Of a stretch of 20,000 bases of DNA, positions 6,105-18,891 are shown piece by piece. The stretch is taken from assembly GCA_000934665.2 (NCBI GenBank), contig KZ538383.1:56631-76630 (forward strand). Direction: 5' to 3'. Position numbers and translations under genes: made by a program. How positions within the stretch are numbered: position 1 is the stretch's first letter; every line of letters starts with the position of its first letter. This stretch comes from Catajapyx aquilonaris. Taxonomy: Eukaryota. Under the pieces are notes generated by a model. It worked only from the letters and a program-made list of their open reading frames with translations, had not been told where the DNA came from and did no database searches.

Positions 6105-6599
6105 ATATGTAGACTCCTTTTACTGCACATGAAACACGAATAATGATCGCAATAATGATTACTGCGAACAAGGCAATCTCGCAAAATCCCATCAGTAATC
6201 TGTATCACTCTCATATCCCTTTCCCTTGGCATATACTGCGGGTACCAAGGCGGTATGGTAGTGAGTGCTTATCGCCAAAGCCTTCCTCCTATGAGGCCCT
6301 GCATTCGATCCCGGGGCGGAAAGAGGATCTTCTCACGTGGAAAGAGTTTAGATGGGCTCTCTCCGTGTTATCGTGGGATTTCTCGGGGTTATTCAGTTTG
6401 ATCCCAAAATCAAAATCTATCAGCAGTGTCACGACGTGTGTCTATGACTATAGGGAAAGGCAATTTCAGTGTGCAACCCGAATAGGCTACCTCTTTAGGC
6501 CAAGTGCTCGACTCAGGATCGAAAACAGTGGGTTTTTTCGTCTGGAATCGTCCAATGTTAAGATAAGTGAAAAGTCCGGAATGGATGGTGGGTATCCTC

Positions 6600-6842
6600 T
6601 AATGTACGGAAAACGAGAGAACGATCTGACGTCATCAAGGTTTCCATGGAAATGCCCTCACAGAACAATATGAGTAAACAGTGTCAACAAAAAGCAACAA
6701 TGTAAGAAACGATGACGTCAGATCGTTAAAATTCTCTCGTTTTCCGTACATTAGGCCTACTCACATTGTTCTGTGAGAGTCTTTCCATGGAAACCTTGAT
6801 GACATATTGACATCAGATCGTTCTCTCATTTTCCGTACATTA
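6600..6842. mobile_element. Foldback MITE-like element with an extra internal copy of the right end
   Basis: The left arm 6600-6676 is inverted at 6758-6842 with small indels. A second partial inverted copy of the terminus lies at 6711-6753. Confidence 0.7.
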
Positions 6843-7092
6843 CAAGAGAATATTTAGAAGGTCAGGGGTGGTGGAGGGCAGGGGAGGCGGGGAGGGGCAT
6901 TATTGGAAGATACAGGATGGCAACGTGATGCAGTATTTTTCGTTGGATTTCCTATTGCCTTGTTAAAAGTGTAAATAATTCAATTACATTTATGGTTCAG
7001 AATGAAGCTTCCGCCAACTTGGAAAGTCAGTGTACAACTGTACATTATTGGTGCCGGTATATAGGGCTATCACTTTATTCCATTACAGTAAG

Positions 7093-7681: not shown

Positions 7682-8167
7682 CAGTGCCGGATCTACGAAA
7701 TATCGGGGGGGGGGGGGGGGGGGGNTTTGCTGCTACCCCCACCCCCGCATTTTGAAAGGTTCACTTCATTTTTTTGGTATGACTCGTGTCCACTTGCACA
7801 GTACGGTATGTCGCCAAAATAATATTTTTCTAGATTTTCATTAGGGAAACTTATGTGGTATTACTTCTGAATGATTTTGGTCATTTCAGGAGCACAAAAA
7901 ATGCCTATGAAGGAATAAGTCCAGAATAGGCCCAAAAAAATCCAGAAATTCCTTCAAAAAAGTTCAAAAACTATACCAAAAAAGGCAAATAGGCCAGTTG
8001 CCTGTTGGGTCAAATTTCTTTCAAAGTTTTGCTTTCAGGGGGTAAGCAAAATTTGGTTAATTAATTTATGTGACAAGTATATTTCTAGGGACCAGACATG
8101 CCGCCCCCACATTGTTGCTGCCCGGGACATGTGCCCCTGATCCCCCCCCCCCCCCCCCCCCCNTCTA
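7682..8167. mobile_element. Degenerate non-autonomous element with poly-G / poly-C ends
   Basis: Starts CAGTGCCGGATCTAC followed by a G-run and ends in GTGCCCCTGAT plus a C-run, with an AT-rich interior. The right end is interrupted by the hAT MITE. Boundaries approximate. Confidence 0.4.
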
Positions 8168-9348: not shown

Positions 9349-9881
9349 CAGGGATATGCAACTGGCGGACCGCGGTCCGGATCCGGACCGCGACGCAATT
9401 TTGTCCGGACCGCGACAATATACAGGACAGTTTGAAATAGCATGATAAATTACTAATTCATGATTTTTTTAAGGAAAATGTGCTACCAATTTCATCATAT
9501 ACACACCTATTCAAATCTTCCACATCTCACCTAAGCTCGTGTGACCTTGAACCCCCCCAAAAATTTCGCCTGCGGCGGGCTCGTTCCCTGCCCTTTACAG
9601 CGTGTTCACCTTGTGCTTACGAAATGGCCTCCCCTCCGAAATTCTTCTGCCTACGCCCCTGTACAGGACATCATGAAAGGGCGAAAATGTATCTTAATAT
9701 GCCCTGTCTTGATAGGTCCTTCTACCCTTGCTGCACATGTTTATATTTTCAAATATGAACCCTGTGGTACCATATATAAAATCTATATATCCCCCCCCCC
9801 GGGGGGGAGGGGGGTCCGGACCTTCAATGACCCAGGAAAGGTAAAAACTGGACCTTGTCAGAAACTAGTTGAACACCCCTG
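9349..9881. mobile_element. Non-autonomous hAT (Charlie-like) element, 533 bp, with a nested fragment at about 9548-9661
   Basis: TIRs CAGGGATATGCAACT / AGTTGAACACCCCTG match 12/15. 8-bp TSD CCCTATAG (9341-9348) vs CCCTATAT (9882-9889). Subterminal CGGACC/GGTCCG repeats. Confidence 0.85.
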
Positions 9882-10201
9882 CCCTATATAGGTTTGCTGC
9901 ATCCACAACATGGAAGGTGGTATATTTCACTTTTTGTTTGCAGGAATCGGATTCCTGCAATCTCATGAACTCAGGCAAAAGTGGCGAAATAGCATTCACA
10001 ATATTATGGAGCTCTTACAGGTAGCTGACTCTTGGTGCATGGAAGACCCCCGATAACTTGGAGTGCAAGGTTACCCTCCTAGACAATACCATTGTCTATG
10101 GTTACGCTATAATAACAATGAGATCTCTGTATGGGCTTTTACCATTGTCTAGGATTATACTATAATCACAATGAGATATCCGCAAGGGATTTGAACTCGT
10201 T

Positions 10202-10963: not shown

Positions 10964-12125
10964 CAGGGCCGCATTATCCACAAGGCTATATAGGCTGAAG
11001 CCTAGGGGCCCACCAAAAGCAGGGGCCCATCGCCATCACACATGCAAGTGTGCAACTTTTTTTTAAAGTGTTACTTGAACCCAAAAAAAATTTCGCCTGC
11101 GGCGGGCCCTCTCTTTGTAAAAGTTTGGGTATTTGGCTCCATCTCCGGGGGGTGATTACGCATGCACTTGTCACATCGCCGGTTCATTACTACATAGTTC
11201 TAACTCCACTTTTGATGAAGCGGAGATATTTGAATCCAAAGTTTGCACAGTACAACAATTAGACCATGAACATTCAAACGTAATGAGTTAATTTTTGCAA
11301 TGCTGTGGCTTACATACCCTACCCGTATCATGTGTTTCACTGTGCCAATGTCATTTGTCGTTGTCTGTAACAGCAGCAACAATGGTGGAGTTAGAACCTT
11401 TAAAATCACCTAATTTGAATTTTTTCAGAATCACAAAAGTCTAACTCCCGAGTTAGAACTTCATAACACTAACGAAAAGTGGCAATGTGGAGTTGCACCT
11501 CTTAAGTCACTACTTGGAGTTAGAACTATGTAAGTAATAAACCGGCGAAATGCATCCTGACCAGTTTTTTTTGGATAGGCCGATGGAGTTAGAAGTAGGT
11601 GCACCTCTTACGTCACTTTTTCTCAAAATAGGAGTTAGAACTATGTAGTAATAAACCGGCGAATCTCGTCACAAACTGTTCTGGCGAGGGGTCTTTTTCT
11701 GCTCTGAAACGTATTAAGAATTACCTGCATATCGCTCTGAAAGATGAAAAGCTCAACCATTTGGAAATAATGCACTTAAAATCATCTGTCCTCCGGAAAT
11801 TAAATTTTAACAAGGTTCTGGATCGGTTTGTTGAAAGATTACTGAGAAAAATGTTTCAGTAGCCGTGTACATAATATTATGTAGGCCTTTAGGGCCTATG
11901 TTAACCCTCACAGTACAGTCCCGGAATAAGTAATGCTTTGGTTAATGCTAATTAAAGGTTGTTTGATGAGATATTATTTTCTTTGTTACTCCATTAATTT
12001 CTTCATTTGTAACATTGTAATAAATGGCATGAAAGGAGAGCGTGATATTCGCGCGGGGGGGGGGGGGGGGGGGNGGGGGGGCACGGGCCCAAAGAAGCTC
12101 GAAGCCTAGGGGCCCAGCCATGGGT
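10964..12125. mobile_element. Non-autonomous DNA element with GGGGCCC subterminal repeats (likely hAT-derived), hosting a nested MITE
   Basis: Starts CAGGGCCGCATTATCC. GAAGCCTAGGGGCCCA is repeated near both ends (about 10997 and 12101). The right terminus is degenerate and no TSD was found. Confidence 0.55.
11176..11662. mobile_element. MITE with 32-bp TIRs and a duplicated right end
   Basis: TCGCCGGTTCATTACTACATAGTTCTAACTCC (11176-11207) is inverted at 11631-11662 (1 mismatch) and at 11516-11548 (1 mismatch, 1 insertion). Internal GAGTTAGAA repeats. TSD unclear. Confidence 0.85.
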
Positions 12126-13089
12126 TTCATGGTGGTTTCTACAAGTCACTGGTGGAACACACGTCTACAGAGATCAATGGCAACAGCCATTCCATTCAAA
12201 AGGATTCCAACCATATATCACCATTCCTGCTCTCTATTGGCAGTGATTATGGCCATCAGCAATTTACGGAATGCTCAACGGAACTGTATCAAGCACCAAA
12301 AGTTAATAAGGTCTTGTGCTAATGATAATTGCTTATGGGGTTAATTGATTAAAGAGAGCCGCATGATTTTTTCCTCTCTCTAATAAGTGAACAGGCCATC
12401 AAAACAGATCTTGTATACCTACTATTGGTCTGTGCAGTACAGTATATCTTTGGCGAAAATTGACTGAAGTTGGGTAAAGGTACAGGTACTGACGTACTGT
12501 ACATGTAACATCGTGGAAACAAATAGTAGCACGATCCTTTTCTCACTCTGTCTACAGGTCCTTTTCTCTCTCTTTCCATCCCAGAAAATGTTTTCCGAGC
12601 GTAGTGCAACATTATTTAAGTTTTAAGACATGTTTAACATAAGCCTACAGAAATGTCCAAGCCAAATCTTACCTTTGTCCCTCCCGCTGTCCCACCATCA
12701 CTTCACTACTCTACTTGACAGCGTGGTGTACAGTATTGTACAGTACTCGCATAGCTATTTAATCCAAGATCACGTTCTACTGCGCATGCACTCAACAGCT
12801 AGTGGATTGTGGCTGCGATAGCGGCTACAGACAATCTATTGCTCTGTGTTACAAAAGCAACCACATGGATGAAAAGATAGGAGGCTGAAGACCACCCCAC
12901 TGCAACTCTAACAACGTGACTGCAACTCTGGTGATATTTCCCGTTTTCACGGCAGATGGCGCGGATGGCAGTGAGGGACATGCTCATACCCAAACAGTTA
13001 CCAAACCCATTGGCTGGTTTCTCGGATAGTTAAAGAAAATTATGCCCGTTATGGTCAATTTGGTCATCAATTTTTTTGTGCAATAAATA

Positions 13090-13268
13090 CCGTATTTGAC
13101 GGCATATAAGAATAAGACGCACGTAACGTATAAGGCTCACCCTCATTTCAGCAGATCATATATTCAGGGGGGAAAAATGTTCTGTGTATTATTTTGCATA
13201 TAAGATGCATGGCGGTTTTTTGAGCAATTTTTTGGGGGAAAACGTGCGTATTACTGTATATGCCGTCA
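13090..13268. mobile_element. Degenerate Tc1/mariner-superfamily MITE (TA-CCGTATTT type)
   Basis: Left end TA CCGTATTTGACGGCATATAAG...TAAGACGCAC. The right end GTGCGTATTA...TATATGCCGTCA is inverted but lacks the last bases. Confidence 0.6.
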
Positions 13269-13793
13269 TTCTTATCCCAAGTTATATAGCCAAAAAATGT
13301 TAAGCGTTATGGGAGGGCGGGAAACGGAAATGTTTCCGGAGGACCAAAGTTGCAAATCGGACCTGTGCTGTGCCCATCAGGCATCAGCTGACTCGAAAGG
13401 AGATAGTTATAGTGATATATGGTACCATTGAAAAAGTATTCTTGCGGGTGTAAAGGATCCCACCAAACTGTATATATAAACCACCATTTACAGTTACCTT
13501 TTAAAAAATAGCCAGCTTGTTTTTCTTGAAACTCGTACCTATTTATGTAATGTATTAAGGTGTATTTTTAAGTTGCAAAGTGATACCAAGGTGATACACT
13601 GTTATCTGCATATTACTAGAAGCGCACGTTATTTAGTGACGAAATAATACCACTAACCTCCATGAAAATATGAGTTATACTACATAATTATACCTACCCG
13701 ATCGACATTAGGTCATCATATCATAAATAAAGTGCCTGATGAACAGTTATTTTTTCCCCTAAAACAACTCATAATGTCTCATATTTCTTGTAG

Positions 13794-14355
13794 GCGCAGG
13801 TGCAAGGCACATGTGCCGTGGCAGGTGTACAAGTGTAATTGACCTTATCTTATCGCTGCACACCTGCAATTGTTCCGTTCATAGTGGAAGAGTGACAGAG
13901 AAATGGAGAATGGAACAAGACGTGCAGTGGGTTGCCTGCAAACCGGCAAGCGACAAGGTGTCACCAGCGACGCCACGTGGGGAAATGGAAAAGTTGTCCA
14001 ACCGCTCCTACAGACCTGTACCGACTTCCGACTTCCCAACCCCTGTCCCAACCATTCTACAATGAACCTTACTAGCAGACATGGCGCCGCCGTTAGTAGT
14101 ACGAGACTACGAGCCAGTACGCGATCAACCGAAAATAGCCGGTGTGGAGTCTGATTTAGGAGACAGCAGTTGGAGGCCCAATGCAATGTCCAGCAGCTGC
14201 AGGCAGCTTTCCACAATATGAAGAAGGCTGATAGGAAGGCCGCTGCAAACAAGAACTGGTGGGGACCACACTGGCCCACCACTGGACAACCTGACCAAAT
14301 GCCATGCTGTGCTCTACATGGTTGATTATGATTGATGGGGTTGGGGTGAGAAATG
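13794..14355 (+). other. Candidate exon, non-coding or pseudogenic
   Basis: GC-richer block bounded by acceptor ATATTTCTTGTAG|G and donor ATG|GTAAGT. No frame is open across it and no protein is recognisable. Confidence 0.3.
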
Positions 14356-14672
14356 GTAAGTTGTGAATGCTGGCAGGTACACGTATAGCATAAGCCATAA
14401 GTGATATTATTATGTGCTAAAATCTCAGACTGCTATTGTCTTATTGGGGCAGGCTTGTAGGCATCGGCTTGTACGATGATGGTATGATGGTTCTGAGGAT
14501 GCTGGCAGTGATGCTGCAGACAAGCACAGACGACAGACAACATGTATCTCCAACCACTTGCGCCTGAAGTCATTCTCACTGACTGACATGTAAGGGTTCA
14601 TATACTGTATACCATTTGTTGGGGGTGCCCAGCGATGGACCCATGGGCTTTTTTGATGGTGAACAAATTGTT

Positions 14673-15205
14673 GCAGTAAAGATGAGCATGGGCAGGTACG
14701 TTGATCCTTCCTCTACTTGATAAGATGGGTAGGCACCTCCTTGCAACTTGTGCGCAGGTGCGGCAGCCGTCGAACAAGACTGAGTGGCGTGCCCGCCCAT
14801 ATCCCACCAGGAAAAGTTATGCCAGACAGAGAGTGTTGGTCACACAGACTAAGGCAGAAGTGAAGACACTGTTCGTAATTGCTGTGGTGTGTAGTCAGGG
14901 TCTCTGGTTGTCCTTCATGCTCACAAGCTTATTCCGAAATTGACGGCACCATATCACCACACTATTTTCTCGGACACGACATCTCCGGATCATACCCTCC
15001 CAAGAGCCAGCGATGAATGTCGTATGTCAAATGTCAGCCACTGGTAGCGATCATCTGTCCTCACTTCTGCCTTAGTTCATGTGACCAACACTCTCTGGCA
15101 TGACTTTTCCTGGAGGCACGGGCAGGCACACTCGGCTCGCCACTCAGTCTTGTCTAGCGGCTGCCGCACCTGCACTTAAGCTGCAAGAAGGCACCTATCC
15201 ATCTA
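14673..15205. repeat. Diverged inverted duplication: left arm about 14673-14870, right arm about 15055-15205, continuing at 18128-18176 beyond the retrotransposon
   Basis: CACTTCTGCCTTAGT..TGTGACCAACACTCTCTG..CGCCACTCAGTCTTGT..CGGCTGCCGCACCTGC matches the reverse complement of 14720-14870. AAGTAGTGGAAGGATCGACGTATCTGC (18133) matches the reverse complement of about 14692-14718. Confidence 0.85.
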
Positions 15206-16220
15206 AGATGAGAGCTGACTCTCTTCTGCAGGAGTATCCAGCAGTTTCACGTCCATTTCAACGAATACCGATGGATTTCGTTGGGCCGTTAACAACTTCC
15301 ATGAGTGGAAACAAACATATCCTAGTTGTCACTGATTTTTTCACAAAATTTGCCGAGGCATTCGCACTACCTGACCAAACTGCCGAAACTGTCGCAAAGG
15401 TAATGGTGTACAAAGTAATAGCCACGCATGGCGTACCAGCTGAGATGTTGACAGACAAAGGAAAAAATTTCACATCTAAACTCATGGATGAAATTTATAA
15501 ACTCTTAGGTGTGAGGGCTTTGCAGACTTCAGCCTATCACCCAGCCGGAAATGGACTCGTAGAGCGTTTCAACAAAACTCTTGTCGAAATGCTAAGTCAT
15601 TATGTTGACAAATACCAACAAAACTGGGATGTTGAAATACCGTTGGTCCTTATGGCTTATAGAGGTGCCATTCAAGAATCAACTGGTGAAACTCCTTTTT
15701 TTCTCAACCATGGACGTGACCTTATATTTCCATTCGATGACATTTTAAGGCGTGACAATTCTACCCCAACTAACACTTTCACACAAGGTCTTGTTACTAA
15801 ACTCCAAACAGCATACAAGATTGTAAAGGATAGAATCCATGACTCTTTTCTCAAGCAGAAAAAAAACCATGATCGTAGATTCCGCCACAAACACATTCGT
15901 GAAGGTGATCTAGTCTTGTTACATAAGCCACAATGTCCTCAGGGTCTGAGCAGAAAATTTGACAAACCTTGGGATGGTCCTTACCGAGTTGTCAAGCGAA
16001 GGAGCCCTGTCGTTTTTGAACTACAAAAGCGGGACAAACAGTTACTCTTGTGGCACATCGGGATCGCCTAAGAAAGTATTTTCCAGCGTGTCCCTTTCCA
16101 CAACAAGACAGAGACCAAACCTCCTCACAAGATCATCCCCCCACACCAACCATCACTTCTTCTTCACATCCATATAATTTAAGGCAAAGGTCCTACCCAG
16201 CTGGTTTTTACACTGAATAG
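15206..16220 (+). pseudogene. pol: Gypsy pol remnant: integrase catalytic core plus GPY/F C-terminus, one frameshift, HHCC domain missing
   Basis: Motifs PFQRIPMDFVGPL, LTDKGKNFTS, TSAYHPAGNGLVERFNKTL, STGETPFFL and KFDKPWDGPYRV. After a -1 shift near 16030-16038 the frame continues TVTLVAHRDRLRKY...HPYNLRQRSYPAGFYTE* to TAG at 16218-16220. Confidence 0.93.
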
Positions 16221-16425
16221 AATAATGGTTTATTCTTCAGTTGGAAAAATTTGTATATTTCTGATCCTAGAAATATGATAAATTTATGTTGCCTGGGTAT
16301 CGAAGAAAGAAAAAAAAAAATGATGAAAAAAAAACCGTTGTGTTGTTTTCTTATTAAAACAATCTCTATGGAGCTTCGTCTCCATAGAAACGGTTGTCCT
16401 GTTGATTATATTTTATAAAAATATA

Positions 16426-16875
16426 CAGGGTGGTCGGTAAATGGCGGACAAGCTTCAGGTAGCGAGATTCCTTGTGAAAAACCAGTAGATGGAAGTGAAG
16501 GTCATATTGCTCTGTGATGCATGGTTAGGGCTCACGAGGTCTCCAAAGTTTGGACCAAATCATGACGTCACATCCGCCCGCGAAATTTAAACAAAATGCC
16601 TGGCAACGTCCCTGCGAGTTTATACGGTTCCATTGTTTGGTGAAAATGTGGGGGATGTCAACATGGCAATGCCTGGTAACAAACCGTGTACTGCAACGAT
16701 ACGGTATTGTTTAAATTTCGCGGGCGGATGTGACGTCATGATTTGGTCCAAACTTTGGAGACCTCGTGAGCCCTAACCATGCATCGCAGAGCAATATGAC
16801 CTTCACTTCCATCTACTGGTTTTTCACAAGGAATCTCGCTACCTGAAGCTTGTCCGCCATTTACCGACCACCCTG
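16426..16875. mobile_element. Young 450-bp Tc1/mariner-type MITE inserted in the retrotransposon
   Basis: 169-bp TIRs (16426-16594 and 16707-16875) with one mismatch seen, CAGGGTG termini, and TA duplication at 16424-16425 and 16876-16877. Confidence 0.96.
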
Positions 16876-16935
16876 TATATGTCAACAAACATCATTTCCC
16901 TTCGAAACGTTGTTCGAAACAGACGTGTTTTTGAA

Positions 16936-17463
16936 ATGGGAAAAAAGTCAAAGATTAGGTCAAGGGGAGGACTCTTCTGCTACCGAGTAGTAGCCATACC
17001 ATCCCCGATGGCTCCATCACCACCATCTCCTAGTTCACCACCATCTCCTGGTTCACCACCATCACCACCATCTCCTGCTTCATCACCAGCACCTGATTCA
17101 CTGCAGTCCCCTTACTATCTGCCATGGACGCCAGAGCCTGCAAAGGAGGAGCGACGGACACCTGCGTGGGACCTGGCTGACCTCATCCCCAATCCGTTTG
17201 GAGCCGAAGAGGTGCGTCTCCAATACAGGAGTCATACCATCCAACGACGGGACTTCCACCGGGCTCGACACTGTGTCCCGTCGTTGGGGTCCGACCAGCG
17301 ATCTGGAGGAGAAGGTTGTGGCGGCCAGCGTGGTGGGACACCTCGTCTGGGGCACTACCCAGGGAGTGGACGGGGAAGCGGACGAGGAAGGTGCAGAAGA
17401 AAAGGTGTAGCGGCCCGATTGGACCACAACCCTTTTTCTAAAGAGAGAGGTAATGTAATGTAA
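16936..17463 (+). CDS. Extra post-pol ORF of the Gypsy element, Pro/Ser-rich, unknown function, possibly frameshifted
   Basis: Open frame 16879-17463 with ATGs at 16936 and 17008 and SPPSP repeats. An overlapping frame (RRWGPTSDLEEKVVAASVVGHLVWG...EEKV*) stops at 17410, just before the PPT. Confidence 0.5.
   Translation: MGKKSKIRSRGGLFCYRVVAIPSPMAPSPPSPSSPPSPGSPPSPPSPASSPAPDSLQSPYYLPWTPEPAKEERRTPAWDLADLIPNPFGAEEVRLQYRSHTIQRRDFHRARHCVPSLGSDQRSGGEGCGGQRGGTPRLGHYPGSGRGSGRGRCRRKGVAARLDHNPFSKERGNVM
17440..17450 (+). other. Polypurine tract
   Basis: AAAGAGAGAGG preceded by a T-run, 3 nt upstream of TGTAATG. Confidence 0.8.
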
Positions 17464-18127
17464 TGTAATGATACATGTATTCTGTTAACCACTTGTTTGT
17501 TGTTCTGTTGGCTACTTGTTTGTTAATGTAACTTGGATACAGGTTACCATGTATCCCAATGGTTAATTACCTGTTGGTCCACCTCCAAACACATATGTAA
17601 CAATATGTAGGCTATTTCGGTTGGACCTTATCAATAAACAAAGTCGGCCGACTATAAAAGGCTGGCCGTCCGGCTGATCGGGCGAGTTGTTGTTTGACCT
17701 TAGACGGGGTAAGAGCTCTCTCAGGTCTAATTGTCGGCAGTGACTCCCTGGTAACCGTACGCTTAAAACAATCAACCAGTCTTGTCAATGGGGGGTTGTA
17801 ACTGAAGAAGGAATACAGGCCTATCTTAACTGATGACCGGGCCAGCACTTTGTGCGCCGCCTAGTCTATCGGTCAGGAGGAAGGATTGGTCATAATTGGG
17901 CCAGCACTTTGTGCGCCGCCTGACTTATACCAATCCGGCTGTACTGGTTGTTATCGGGGCCAGCACCTTGTGCGCCGCCCGGACTAACGACCAGCGTACT
18001 TCCTTTAGCGACCTTAAAGTGCTTCCCCTGTACTGGCTATGGCCAGCGGAAGCCCGAACTGGGTCGGGGTGTACCTATTCCAACTGGTCACTCCCACAGC
18101 CATGTGTAATGCCAACCTGGCGTCACA
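17454..18127 (+). repeat. 3' LTR (about 674 bp)
   Basis: Begins TGTAATG after the PPT; the start is ambiguous because of (TAATG)4. Ends CGTCACA (5/7 inverted termini). TATAAAA at 17654. No second LTR in the window. Confidence 0.8.
17824..17999 (+). repeat. Array of three 23-nt repeats at 59-nt period forming three tandem RNA hairpins
   Basis: GGGCCAGCACYTTGTGCGCCGCC at 17839, 17898 and 17957. The two 36-nt spacers are dissimilar, and each half pairs across the neighbouring repeat. Confidence 0.85.
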
Positions 18128-18891
18128 CTATGAAGTAGTGGAAGGATCGACGTATCTGCTCATTCTCGTTTTTACCCTGTCCGTTGAATGGCGTCGAAAC
18201 TGCAGTATCGCGAAACTTATTCTCCGACTAGCCTCGTATTTAAAAAGCTAAGTATGCCAATTTGGTACTGATTCCATATGTGCATGACATGTGTATGGCG
18301 TTAGGCATCCTAGAAAATGAATTTTTGATAGCCAACAGGATGAGTCGTGTGTCCGTCCAGTGCACTAGACCTGTTTATGCTCTCATGACATGAGTCTTGG
18401 TAGCAAGCACGACTATTCTGTTGGCACACATGAATTGCACAGGGCATTTATGCCGTTCCGACTAGAATTGTGTGACGCATGTGCAACATCACGCAGCCAG
18501 CAGCATGAGTGCAAGAATTTCTTTGACTTGGTCATAGATAGGAGCAATGAGATATGTCATTGCACCATGTTATAAATGAATTTTTATGTTTTCAGTTGCC
18601 TGAGGAGCCATGTGATTTCATTTATGTGGATGAAGTTCAGCTGCCACCATCCAGCCCAGAAGATGGAAGAAGGAATGATCAGGCAGTGTTCATGTGACAT
18701 TGTCATGATGATTGTATTGTTGGCCATTTGGCACAACTGTCAGGTTATTGATAGTGACTGAGTTGAGTAAATTGTTGAGTTCATGGAATGATAACGTGTT
18801 CTGATTAACAGGCCGTTCGAAGGCCATTCAAGGGCTAACATTTCAATGATATATGGATTTGAAAATGGAATTGCTAAATTGTGATGTTTCA

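Follow-up and report, generated by a model that had tools for sequence, protein, structure and literature searches.

A tandem array of three hairpins, each predicted to display the same 23-nt tip on a basal stem of its own sequence, lies within a putative LTR of a Ty3/Gypsy retrotransposon fragment in the genome of Catajapyx aquilonaris. The evidence for the array comprises its repeats, their predicted folds, the paired changes in their stems, a near-invariant core, and a position past an AATAAA and a TATA-like box in a multi-copy, Gypsy-type LTR. Taken as a whole, the array has the appearance of an RNA docking signal that has been under selection and is of an undescribed type. Throughout, "the window" denotes the whole 20,000-nt stretch of DNA that we analyzed, and all coordinates are positions within it.

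Results

The core of the array, GGGCCAGCACYTTGTGCGCCGCC, was located by pattern search on the + strand at 17839-17861, 17898-17920, and 17957-17979, and no further match was found in the 20-kb window with up to three mismatches allowed. Dinucleotide shuffles of the window contained a core match in 0 of 200 cases, meaning that none is expected by chance. A first-pass annotation of the sequence had reported exact repeats at these three positions, with a 59-nt period and dissimilar 36-nt spacers, and all of this is confirmed: the period is exact, the core is 23 nt long, and the two 36-nt spacers are identical at 10 of 36 ungapped positions, close to the random level. It is equally correct that the copies differ only in the loop, the sole difference being a T-to-C substitution at 17967, the first triloop base of the third copy. 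At the center of this GC-rich 23-mer, GCAC-N3-GTGC forms a perfect inverted repeat around a 3-bp spacer. Translation of the array meets stops in all six frames, and the array is thus non-coding. Tandem Repeats Finder (score of at least 30) did not report it, as is expected when only 23 of every 59 nt are conserved.

The core pattern had no match in a collection of viral contigs and a single match in metagenome contigs, a lone core copy without an array in a very GC-rich sequence; we judged it, on reading, to be a chance match. A pattern of two cores had no match in a collection of genome contigs. In the literature outside subscription journals, we found neither an occurrence of the 23-mer nor, by keyword, a description of such a hairpin array.

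Folding of the array region, which the first-pass annotation had proposed as a check, yielded hairpins on the + strand that are stable relative to shuffled sequence, and the − strand folds as well. For 17820-18003 on the + strand, RNAfold predicted three separate hairpins with a minimum free energy of −82.5 kcal/mol (z = −5.06), a stability reached by 0 of 200 shuffles, and the same three hairpins persisted when the 511 nt from 17630 to 18140 were folded whole. Unit 1 (17824-17878; −23.2 kcal/mol), unit 2 (17883-17936; −24.0 kcal/mol), and unit 3 (17941-17999; −29.8 kcal/mol) each consist of a variable basal stem and the invariant apical module, and the stability of unit 3 ranks third among 7,858 windows of 59 nt on both strands. 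The outer 4 bp of unit 3 are uncertain, as the majority form of the family differs at 17997 and 17999. Adjacent hairpins are joined by the 4-nt linkers that had been annotated (17879-17882 and 17937-17940). RNAfold likewise reproduces the annotated apical architecture in full: all three units carry a 4-bp GGGC/GCCY helix, a CA/GCC internal loop, and a GCAC-YUU-GUGC hairpin, beneath which the half-spacers flanking each repeat are complementary and form stems of 12 to 16 bp.

Each hairpin was also said to bear a single pyrimidine bulge on its 3′ strand just below the motif. The bulges are indeed there, one per hairpin (T17867, C17924, and C17984), but they do not occupy a constant place, lying four, two, and three layers below the core in units 1, 2, and 3, respectively. 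Absent from the earlier description were 1-by-1 mismatches in the stems (17838/17863, 17828/17874, and 17956/17981), a 5′ bulge at C17891, and a 2-nt bulge at 17994-17995. When the arms alone were shuffled, structures as stable as the observed ones arose in 28, 3, and 7 of 3,000 trials for units 1, 2, and 3, respectively, and when the arms were mutated at random and refolded freely, 5 to 6% of trials were as stable as units 1 and 2. Taken alone, this energy test is not extreme.

The arms of the three units are 36 to 54% identical to one another (10/28, 13/32, and 15/28 positions), whereas the cores agree at 68 of 69 positions, and yet the divergent arms still pair. In a structure-guided table of stem layers, which is biased toward pairing by construction, layers that differ on both sides nevertheless remain paired in both units in 6/8, 5/8, and 5/5 cases. 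An independent MAFFT alignment of the three units on the + strand gave, under RNAalifold, one consensus hairpin of 20 pairs (−24.43 kcal/mol) in which 94.8% of 58 cells are paired and 7 of the 20 pairs have changed on both sides. Either value was reached in only 2 of 500 shuffles of the columns, and sliding one partner by one to three columns lowered the pairing to between 30 and 44% and the double changes to zero or one. In simulations of the neutral divergence of a duplicated hairpin, a mean of 27.8 of 48 cells remained paired, and none of 200,000 runs reached the observed 41 of 46. These comparisons, whose covariation material is three paralogous units of one LTR copy, confirm that stem pairing has been kept through two-sided changes and reject the neutral decay of a duplicated hairpin. 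The original proposal that pairing was retained despite different stem sequences is borne out by the two-sided changes and by the 94.8% pairing. Units 1 and 3 also have in common a U-G pair at the same layer.

The + strand, which the orientation of the integrase identifies as the sense strand of the element, is preferred, but the discrimination between strands is weak to modest. Fold z-scores were −5.06 and −4.09 for RNA of the + and − strands, compared with −2.92 and −2.00 with DNA parameters. The first-pass annotation had argued for the + strand from its G-U pairs; the direction is right, with eight G-U cells on the + strand against three that would be G-U on the other, but the argument carries modest weight, as RNAalifold on the − strand also finds a 20-pair consensus with seven compensated pairs (−21.98 kcal/mol).

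Other copies of the family, which are covered in part, supplied variants that we read from assembled contigs mapped to the window. Among the 40 variant entries listed, out of 168, none falls inside a core. At 17930 (C>T) and 17953 (A>G), the majority form of the family stays paired on the + strand, a G-U pair taking the place of the Watson-Crick pair in each case. The same form has 17949 T>G, which turns a U-G wobble into G/G; its partner, 17989, is without change among the variants listed, a high-depth contig seems to cover it, and the change at 17949 looks uncompensated. A further majority change, 17925 T>G, would disrupt an A-U pair if its partner, 17895, is unchanged. In a second sample, one contig covers 17520-18098 at nearly equal length, so the length of the array has been kept in a diverged subfamily. 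In run X1, the depth was 374.7 to 411 over the LTR (main family contigs), 126.9 over the internal part at 17300-17415, and 19.6 over unique flank, figures that are not copy numbers; the family is multi-copy, and its LTR is commoner than its internal part.

The element that carries the array is a fragment on the + strand (15205-18128), delimited by domain searches, homologue searches, and the foldback element that it splits, and it retains a C-terminal part of the integrase, the 3′ region, and one LTR. An open frame at 15085-16071 (+) contains the integrase core (rve, E = 2e-11) and an Integrase_p58_C domain; its first ~40 codons are foldback-element sequence, and the fragment, which sits inside the foldback element, starts at 15205 within the integrase. 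The frame has 114 homologues, of which the best named are arthropod Ty3/Gypsy integrases at 39 to 48% identity. As a query against viral contigs, the integrase gave eight pattern matches, none of which was confirmed. None of the 21 upstream + strand frames (10999-16177) reached the Pfam curated cut-off, and thus no reverse transcriptase or RNase H was found upstream. A gag gene is likewise absent from the window. The window also holds at least four other inverted-repeat (foldback- or MITE-like) elements.

The putative LTR spans 17455-18127 (+). Its 3′ end is firm, fixed at 18127/18128 by the split foldback element and marked by loose contig ends at 18128; it reads ...GTCACA (18122-18127), and a single additional C separates it from the foldback arm, which continues from 18129. 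The 5′ end is approximate and was read from the sequence of this copy alone, in which a purine run (17441-17451) is followed by TGTAATG at 17455, the candidate border. The earlier placement of the array in a Gypsy LTR holds, given an rve integrase upstream on the same strand, the fixed 3′ end, and a depth that is greater over the LTR than over the internal part. We found no second LTR copy within the 20-kb window and no target-site duplication at the fragment junctions. The fragment is dead, 5′ truncated, and left with a single LTR, and as such it cannot act as a 5′ LTR here. A frame between pol and the LTR (16879-17463, tested as 16777-17463) matched no Pfam family and had no homologue among 1,717 candidates, and it may not be a gene. 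Joining this frame across the nested foldback insertion was rejected, as a stop at 16416-16418 precedes the insertion site. We also rejected a PBS-like reading of 18041-18060, which lies inside the LTR and by eye has a poor tRNA 3′-end pattern; a tRNA scan found none.

Three signals help to place the array within the LTR. A motif search found a sole AATAAA/ATTAAA in the LTR, a candidate poly(A) signal at 17633-17638 (+); it is followed by a TATA-like box, TATAAAA, at 17653-17659 (+), and by a GT-rich run, GTTGTTGTTTG, at 17686-17696 (+), a candidate poly(A) downstream element, the latter two being read from the sequence. A passage in PMC3601003 describes a conserved motif order in animal Metaviridae LTRs, AATAAA and then a GT-rich stretch, and the LTR matches that order, with its GT-rich run 48 nt after the AATAAA. 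An AATAAA upstream of both the TATA-like box and the GT-rich run fits a poly(A) site at ~17650-17670, with the array in U5. Judging from the AATAAA and TATA positions, the array probably lies in the U5 or R-U5 part of the RNA leader. The first-pass annotation had placed the array about 170 nt past the TATA-like box; the measured distance from 17653 is 171 nt, but this is not the sole guide to placement, as the upstream AATAAA points to U5. Its corollary, that the array would be transcribed in a 5′ LTR, agrees with a position downstream of the TATA-like box but cannot apply to the copy in the window, which is dead and has no 5′ LTR. A scan for sigma-70 promoters and terminators, a method not suited to a eukaryote, gave one terminator-like match at 17667-17684, in the putative poly(A) region.

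No Rfam family matched anywhere in the window at the gathering score, and the three weak matches found in 17450-18240 at E values up to 10 do not lie on the hairpins, in keeping with the annotation's remark that it did not recognize the motif as a described one. An LTR of the hammerhead ribozyme or retrozyme type, which would have three helices with CUGAUGA and GAAA boxes about helix II, was rejected, for CUGAUGA is confined to the 5′ arm of unit 1 (17830-17836) and is absent from the other two units, and no Rfam match falls on the hairpins.

Discussion

Transcription of the region, activity of the + strand, binding of a protein, and the nature of the function are inferences from these data. 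We tentatively favor a reading in which the genomic RNA carries, in the array, a multivalent docking element for protein that is used in packaging and dimerization or in export and translation, a serious possibility that we would stop short of calling probable. The array would be a cis-acting element of the full-length (+) RNA, situated in the stretch of the LTR (U5 or R-U5) from which the 5′ leader is made. Each 59-nt unit, having its own basal stem sequence, would fold locally into its own hairpin and display the same 23-nt apical module of two 4-bp helices, a CA/GCC loop, and a YUU triloop. A single RNA-binding protein with sequence specificity would then find three equivalent docking sites on the identical modules, and by binding multivalently it would mark the genomic RNA. 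The partner that we would prefer is the element's own Gag/nucleocapsid, acting in selective packaging and dimerization in a Psi-like manner; a host or element-encoded export or translation factor would be our second choice. Diversified stems would likely confer two benefits, namely that units do not mispair with one another and that direct repeats are shorter, with fewer deletions by reverse transcriptase. A bolder version, about which we are more doubtful than hopeful, would make the array an "address tag" composed of the 23-nt module in three copies, and the earliest packaging or recognition signal to be defined for an animal Ty3/Gypsy element. Stem diversification would itself be under selection, so that each hairpin folds independently and the array escapes repeat deletion by reverse transcriptase, and Gag/NC or an element-specific export factor would read the tag multivalently.

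The docking proposal has to be weighed against readings that need no RNA-binding protein. The array may have no function at all if a palindromic unit was duplicated in tandem and its palindromes were kept by template switching in quasi-palindromes, in the course of replication or reverse transcription, and not by selection, an account that we consider unlikely but worth keeping in view. Reverse transcription is, as a matter of general knowledge, prone to template switching; palindromic DNA is common in this genome, to judge from the other inverted-repeat elements of the window; there are only three units, both strands fold, and the majority form has its probable uncompensated change at 17949. 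Yet hairpin-templated correction should give perfect palindromes, whereas all three units have the same asymmetric CA/GCC loop, a 3′ pyrimidine bulge is kept, and a U-G pair is shared at one layer by units 1 and 3. The account also leaves the near-identity of the cores beside such divergent arms unexplained, and the simulation rejects neutral decay. Selection could instead act on DNA, the core being the site of a dimeric transcription factor that was tripled as a downstream enhancer or insulator within the LTR. The perfect inverted repeat at the center of the core, with its 3-bp spacer, and the invariance of the core between variable flanks would suit such a site, and there are precedents: tandem repeats in LTRs are often enhancers, and the leader of Drosophila gypsy holds a tandem array of Su(Hw) sites. 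We nonetheless think this improbable, for a duplex site gives no reason why 15-nt flanks should stay complementary through two-sided changes, and the folding signal is weaker with DNA than with RNA parameters.

Other RNA-level roles fit the anatomy less comfortably. In HTLV-1 and BLV, a folded R/U5 domain brings an upstream AATAAA close to a distant cleavage site, and the hairpins could similarly assist 3′-end formation or, as a U5 structure aiding strand transfer or primer use, reverse transcription. The AATAAA does precede the TATA-like box, the LTR has no other AWTAAA, and the 511-nt fold closes ~17730-18080 into one multibranch domain. We give this only a slim chance, since ~100 nt would still separate the AATAAA from the base of the folded domain, the GT-rich run 48 nt past the AATAAA already provides an ordinary poly(A) site of the type in the passage cited above (PMC3601003), and roles in spacing or structure leave the sequence-invariant 23-nt tip unexplained. 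A source of small RNAs, as three clustered pre-miRNA-like or siRNA-generating hairpins in the LTR, is very improbable: the hairpins are 54 to 59 nt long, with a stem of ~23 bp, and are clustered like pre-miRNAs, but an invariant tip with divergent arms is the reverse of the pattern of miRNA paralogues, the basal extension for Drosha-type processing is missing, and no Rfam miRNA family matched at E values up to 10. A CRISPR array has next to no chance of being the right description. The first-pass annotation had called the array CRISPR-like, and three 23-nt direct repeats with two dissimilar 36-nt spacers do bear a superficial likeness to one, since in CRISPR arrays, too, short exact repeats regularly alternate with spacers that are dissimilar but uniform in length. 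Context and anatomy refute it and reduce the label to a look-alike: this is a eukaryotic retrotransposon with only three repeats, no cas-like domain occurs in the 24 frames scanned, and the self-complementary spacer halves pair across the repeats as the arms of neighboring hairpins.

Cis-acting RNA signals have been well mapped in retroviruses but hardly in Ty3/Gypsy elements. In a passage of a 2016 review, the packaging sequences of Ty elements are described as not precisely defined and the RNA structure of Ty3 as uncharacterized (PMC4974528). A short modular motif with internal covariation would offer a directly testable entry point to the way in which an invertebrate retrotransposon tags its genomic RNA, although an array of neutral palindromic DNA would be nothing unusual in a genome rich in repeats.

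Repeated hairpins with a conserved tip and covarying stems are found here as they are in retroelement leader signals. The GACG-hairpin pair (SL-C/SL-D) is found in the leader of murine leukemia virus (MLV) and related gammaretroviruses and in MLV contributes to dimer stability and packaging, according to a passage in PMC5874298, and the array resembles this gammaretroviral pair in placing neighboring repeated hairpins, with the same apical motif on different stems, in a putative RNA leader. The MLV element described there differs in having two hairpins with 4-nt GACG loops that kiss and that lie downstream of the PBS (PMC5874298), whereas the array has three hairpins with a 23-nt module, lies in the LTR upstream of the expected PBS, and has no sequence likeness to the MLV pair. 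The CTE of Mason-Pfizer monkey virus and that of NXF1 intron 10 present a repeated internal-loop motif that is read by NXF1/Tap for the export of unspliced RNA, as set out in PMC4338338, and the array likewise shows an identical internal-loop motif more than once on a helical scaffold. The CTE, in contrast, is a single extended stem-loop that carries two loops and sits close to the 3′ end of the RNA, not three separate hairpins in an LTR, and the Rfam scans gave no CTE-like sequence match. In export of the Rev/RRE, Rex/RexRE, and Cer1 CERV type, an accessory protein encoded by the element acts on unspliced RNA; the main text of the Cer1 paper names no cis element under the terms "cis-acting," "response element," or "stem-loop." The counterpart here would be the frame between pol and the LTR, which is without homologue or domain.

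If the docking reading is true, the array would be a natural example of the design rule of engineered hairpin arrays, in which the same tip is set on different stems. Engineered MS2/PP7 arrays with non-repetitive stems and the dispersed coat-protein packaging signals of single-stranded RNA phages share a protein-binding tip across different stems, an arrangement that achieves multivalent binding while avoiding misfolding and recombination. Those systems are phage or synthetic, and the likeness of the Catajapyx array to them, the same tip on different stems, is by analogy only.

Three predicted hairpins with a shared tip on divergent stems

The 23-nt core GGGCCAGCACYTTGTGCGCCGCC occurs on the + strand at 17839, 17898 and 17957, with a period of exactly 59 nt, and nowhere else in the window at up to three mismatches; no match was recovered from 200 shuffled sequences. 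The two 36-nt spacers are identical at 10 of 36 ungapped positions, and the sole difference among the cores is a T-to-C change at 17967, the first base of the predicted triloop. The window search and the spacer comparison confirm the repeats and spacers described in the first-pass annotation. When 17820-18003 (+) was folded as RNA, three separate hairpins (17824-17878, 17883-17936 and 17941-17999) were obtained, joined by 4-nt linkers as had been proposed, with a minimum free energy (MFE) of -82.5 kcal/mol (z -5.06) that none of 200 shuffles equaled. The same three hairpins were recovered when 17630-18140 was folded in one piece. Every predicted hairpin carries the apical module (a GGGC/GCCY helix, a CA/GCC internal loop and a GCAC-YUU-GUGC triloop hairpin), one pyrimidine bulge on the 3' strand, and a few extra mismatches and bulges. 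The single bulge had been described as lying just below the motif in each unit; its presence held, but its constant position did not, since it sits 4, 2 and 3 stem layers below the core in units 1, 2 and 3. Shuffling the arms alone gave equally stable hairpins in 28, 3 and 7 of 3000 trials for units 1, 2 and 3, respectively. Stop codons interrupt all six reading frames of the array.

The three units are paralogues of equal length that share the core and retain alignable arms. RNAalifold, applied to an independent MAFFT alignment of the units, returned one consensus hairpin of 20 pairs in which 94.8% of 58 cells (one pair in one unit) are paired and 7 pairs have changed on both sides; either value was reached in 2 of 500 shuffles of the columns, and sliding the 3' partner by 1 to 3 columns reduced pairing to 30-44% and double changes to 0-1. 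A structure-guided table of stem layers, biased towards pairing by construction, has 44 of 49 cells paired. In this table, arm identity between units is 10/28, 13/32 and 15/28, versus 68/69 for the cores, and where a layer differs on both sides, the two units compared nonetheless both pair in 6/8, 5/8 and 5/5 cases. In a neutral simulation of a perfect ancestral stem diverging to an identity tuned slightly above that observed, a mean of 27.8 of 48 cells remained paired, and the observed 41 of 46 was reached in none of 200,000 runs. A looser test, in which mutated arms refolded freely, gave a less extreme result: 5-6% of trials matched units 1 and 2 in stability. We conclude that the repeats, the paired changes in the stems and the predicted fold into three hairpins are genuine and stand out statistically. 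The earlier proposal that pairing kept across different stems reflects selection on RNA structure is supported by the paired changes and the neutral simulation and, as judged from three sequences, is suggestive rather than conclusive.

Strand and molecule

The - strand also folds as RNA (MFE -77.2 kcal/mol, z -4.09), and DNA parameters gave -35.4 kcal/mol (z -2.92) for the + strand, with the fold of unit 1 partly lost, and -33.1 kcal/mol (z -2.00) for the - strand. The - strand consensus has 20 pairs, 7 of them compensated, at -21.98 versus -24.43 kcal/mol for the + strand. G-U pairs had been said to favor the + strand; the direction held (8 G-U cells versus 3 A-C cells, which would be G-U on the other strand), but the strength is modest. 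We infer that + strand RNA is the favored form by a modest margin, also because the + strand is the element's sense strand.

The host element and its other copies

Because the frame at 15085-16071 (+) encodes an integrase core domain (rve, E 2e-11) and has 114 homologues, of which the closest named ones are integrases from dragonfly and mite (39-48% identity), we assign the host to an animal Ty3/Gypsy-type element in + orientation. No reverse transcriptase or RNase H domain was found, as all 21 + strand frames upstream stayed below the Pfam curated cut-off, and the window holds no second long terminal repeat (LTR). The arm at 14676-14722 pairs with 18129-18175, and the directly adjoining arm at 14723-14793 pairs with 15134-15204; a 2924-bp insert thus divides one foldback element exactly between 15204 and 18129. 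This insert starts inside the integrase and ends ...GTCACA-C; no target site is duplicated, and the 3' junction carries an additional C. Lacking its 5' part and having a single LTR, the copy is a truncated fragment, and the element that holds the array in this window is dead. Such an insert, truncated and without duplication, resembles the capture of a partial cDNA at a break more than it does ordinary insertion by integrase. Since the foldback arms bound the insert, the LTR 3' end is fixed at 18127/18128, where the first-pass annotation had assumed it; the putative 5' end (+) lies at ~17455, after a purine run at 17441-17451.

In contigs from public DNA runs, a different, more abundant repeat starts at 18128, and its loose-end sequence matches foldback arm 15172-15202; the split foldback family is highly repeated in these runs. 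The main-family contigs of one run have depths of 374.7-411 across the LTR, 126.9 across internal positions 17300-17415 and 19.6 in unique flank, so within the limits of contig depth, which is not a copy number, the family is multi-copy with LTRs in excess.

These contigs identify the window copy as a minority variant, the majority form differing at four stem positions, and the evidence they offer is mixed and partial. With each of two changes (17930 C>T and 17953 A>G), a Watson-Crick pair becomes G-U on the + strand. A third, 17949 T>G, would convert U-G to G/G; its partner 17989 is unchanged among the rows listed, and the change is probably uncompensated, as a high-depth contig apparently covers that partner. 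The fourth, 17925 T>G, disrupts an A-U pair, barring a matching change at 17895, which lies close to a contig end. None of the 40 variant rows listed (a further 128 exist) falls inside a core. In a second sample, a contig of 798 nt covers 17520-18098 with 552 of its letters and represents a subfamily with 58 substitutions and 41 gap positions, so the array is of about the same length there. One contig joins 17922 to 18032, skipping 109 nt, and represents a copy without unit 3 and the sequence after it. Another join, across 17664-17810, skips 145 nt and points to LTR variants without the segment preceding the array.

Placement in the LTR and candidate functions

The single AATAAA of the LTR lies at 17633, followed 48 nt later by a GT-rich run (17686-17696), with TATAAAA (17653) between the two. 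In animal Metaviridae LTRs, according to the available text of Benachenhou et al. (PMC3601003), AATAAA is well conserved and precedes a GT-rich stretch marking the start of U5, with the TATA box showing less conservation. Applied here, this model would place the R/U5 border at about 17650-17670 and the array in U5; with the TATA-like box as promoter instead, the array would lie ~140 nt into the transcript. The first-pass annotation had relied on the TATA-like box, which is not the sole means of placement. On either model, RNA made from a 5' LTR would contain the array in its predicted 5' leader, ~128 nt ahead of the LTR end and the predicted primer-binding site.

An invariant, structured 23-nt tip on stems constrained for pairing only is what one would expect of a hairpin recognized by a sequence-specific partner. 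The three copies at 59-nt steps suggest multivalent or cooperative binding, and differing stems could let each unit fold independently; by general retroviral biology, they would also limit direct repeats to 23 nt and so may reduce template-switching deletion during reverse transcription. We tentatively favor a protein-docking leader element, a reading to which we give somewhat less than an even chance, with Gag/NC capture (packaging or dimerization) ranked as its first candidate role and binding of an export or translation factor as its second. The array would then count among the cis-acting structured RNA elements known from retroelement leaders. The closest analogues, the MLV GACG hairpin pair and the CTE with repeated NXF1-binding loops (as far as the available text of PMC5874298 and PMC4338338 describes them) and Cer1/CERV accessory-protein export (PMC10309623), have neither sequence nor exact architecture in common with it.

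Against this docking element stand several less probable explanations. That the array has no function, its palindromes being kept by a mutational mechanism, is unlikely but deserves some weight. It is improbable that the units are sites for duplex-DNA factors, and rather more so that they take part in 3'-end formation or reverse transcription. Small-RNA precursors are very improbable, and miRNA-like conservation is reversed here, with the tip invariant and the arms variable. A CRISPR array, to which the first-pass annotation had likened it, can practically be discarded, given the eukaryotic retroelement context, the count of three repeats and the spacer halves that serve as hairpin arms.

A scan found no tRNA. 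The hammerhead core box CUGAUGA occurs at 17830-17836, in the 5' arm of hairpin 1, and is absent from units 2 and 3; with no ribozyme match, we take it as coincidence. Rfam gave no match at gathering score and none on the hairpins at E values up to 10, and the 23-mer does not occur in the searchable literature; the motif is undescribed, as the first reading had supposed.

Neighboring features

Between the integrase and the LTR, an open frame at 16879-17463 (+) combines a Pro/Ser-rich part, made of 9/18/27/45-nt tandem repeats (17014-17101), with a tail rich in Arg and Gly. Neither a Pfam family nor a homologue was found for this frame, and it may not represent a gene; an accessory protein rich in Arg would make a natural candidate for the partner of the hairpins. 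Inside the element, immediately before the LTR, 17236-17294 is predicted to form a strong hairpin whose 13-bp stem is perfect and which ranks within the 25 most stable 59-nt windows. A second foldback/MITE-like element (16412-16889; 183-nt arms, 97% complementary, TATA at both flanks) sits within the Gypsy region, in the interval from integrase to LTR, and two further inverted-repeat elements (arms 40-46 nt, 90-93% complementary) lie at 6595-6847 and 11176-11662; the window is rich in palindromic, mobile-element-like DNA. Homopolymer runs of G20, C21 and G27 (7705-7724, 8142-8162 and 12055-12081) may be assembly or sequencing artifacts or poly-G/C tracts; the G27 run gives X in translation and so apparently holds an ambiguous base. 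A 53-nt unit is tandemly duplicated at 10087-10192 (81% identity). Nested GC-rich palindromes containing recurring words of the GGACCGCG/CGCGGTCC type and a C-run/G-run palindrome, at 9360-9420 and 9790-9815, count among the window's most stable local folds.
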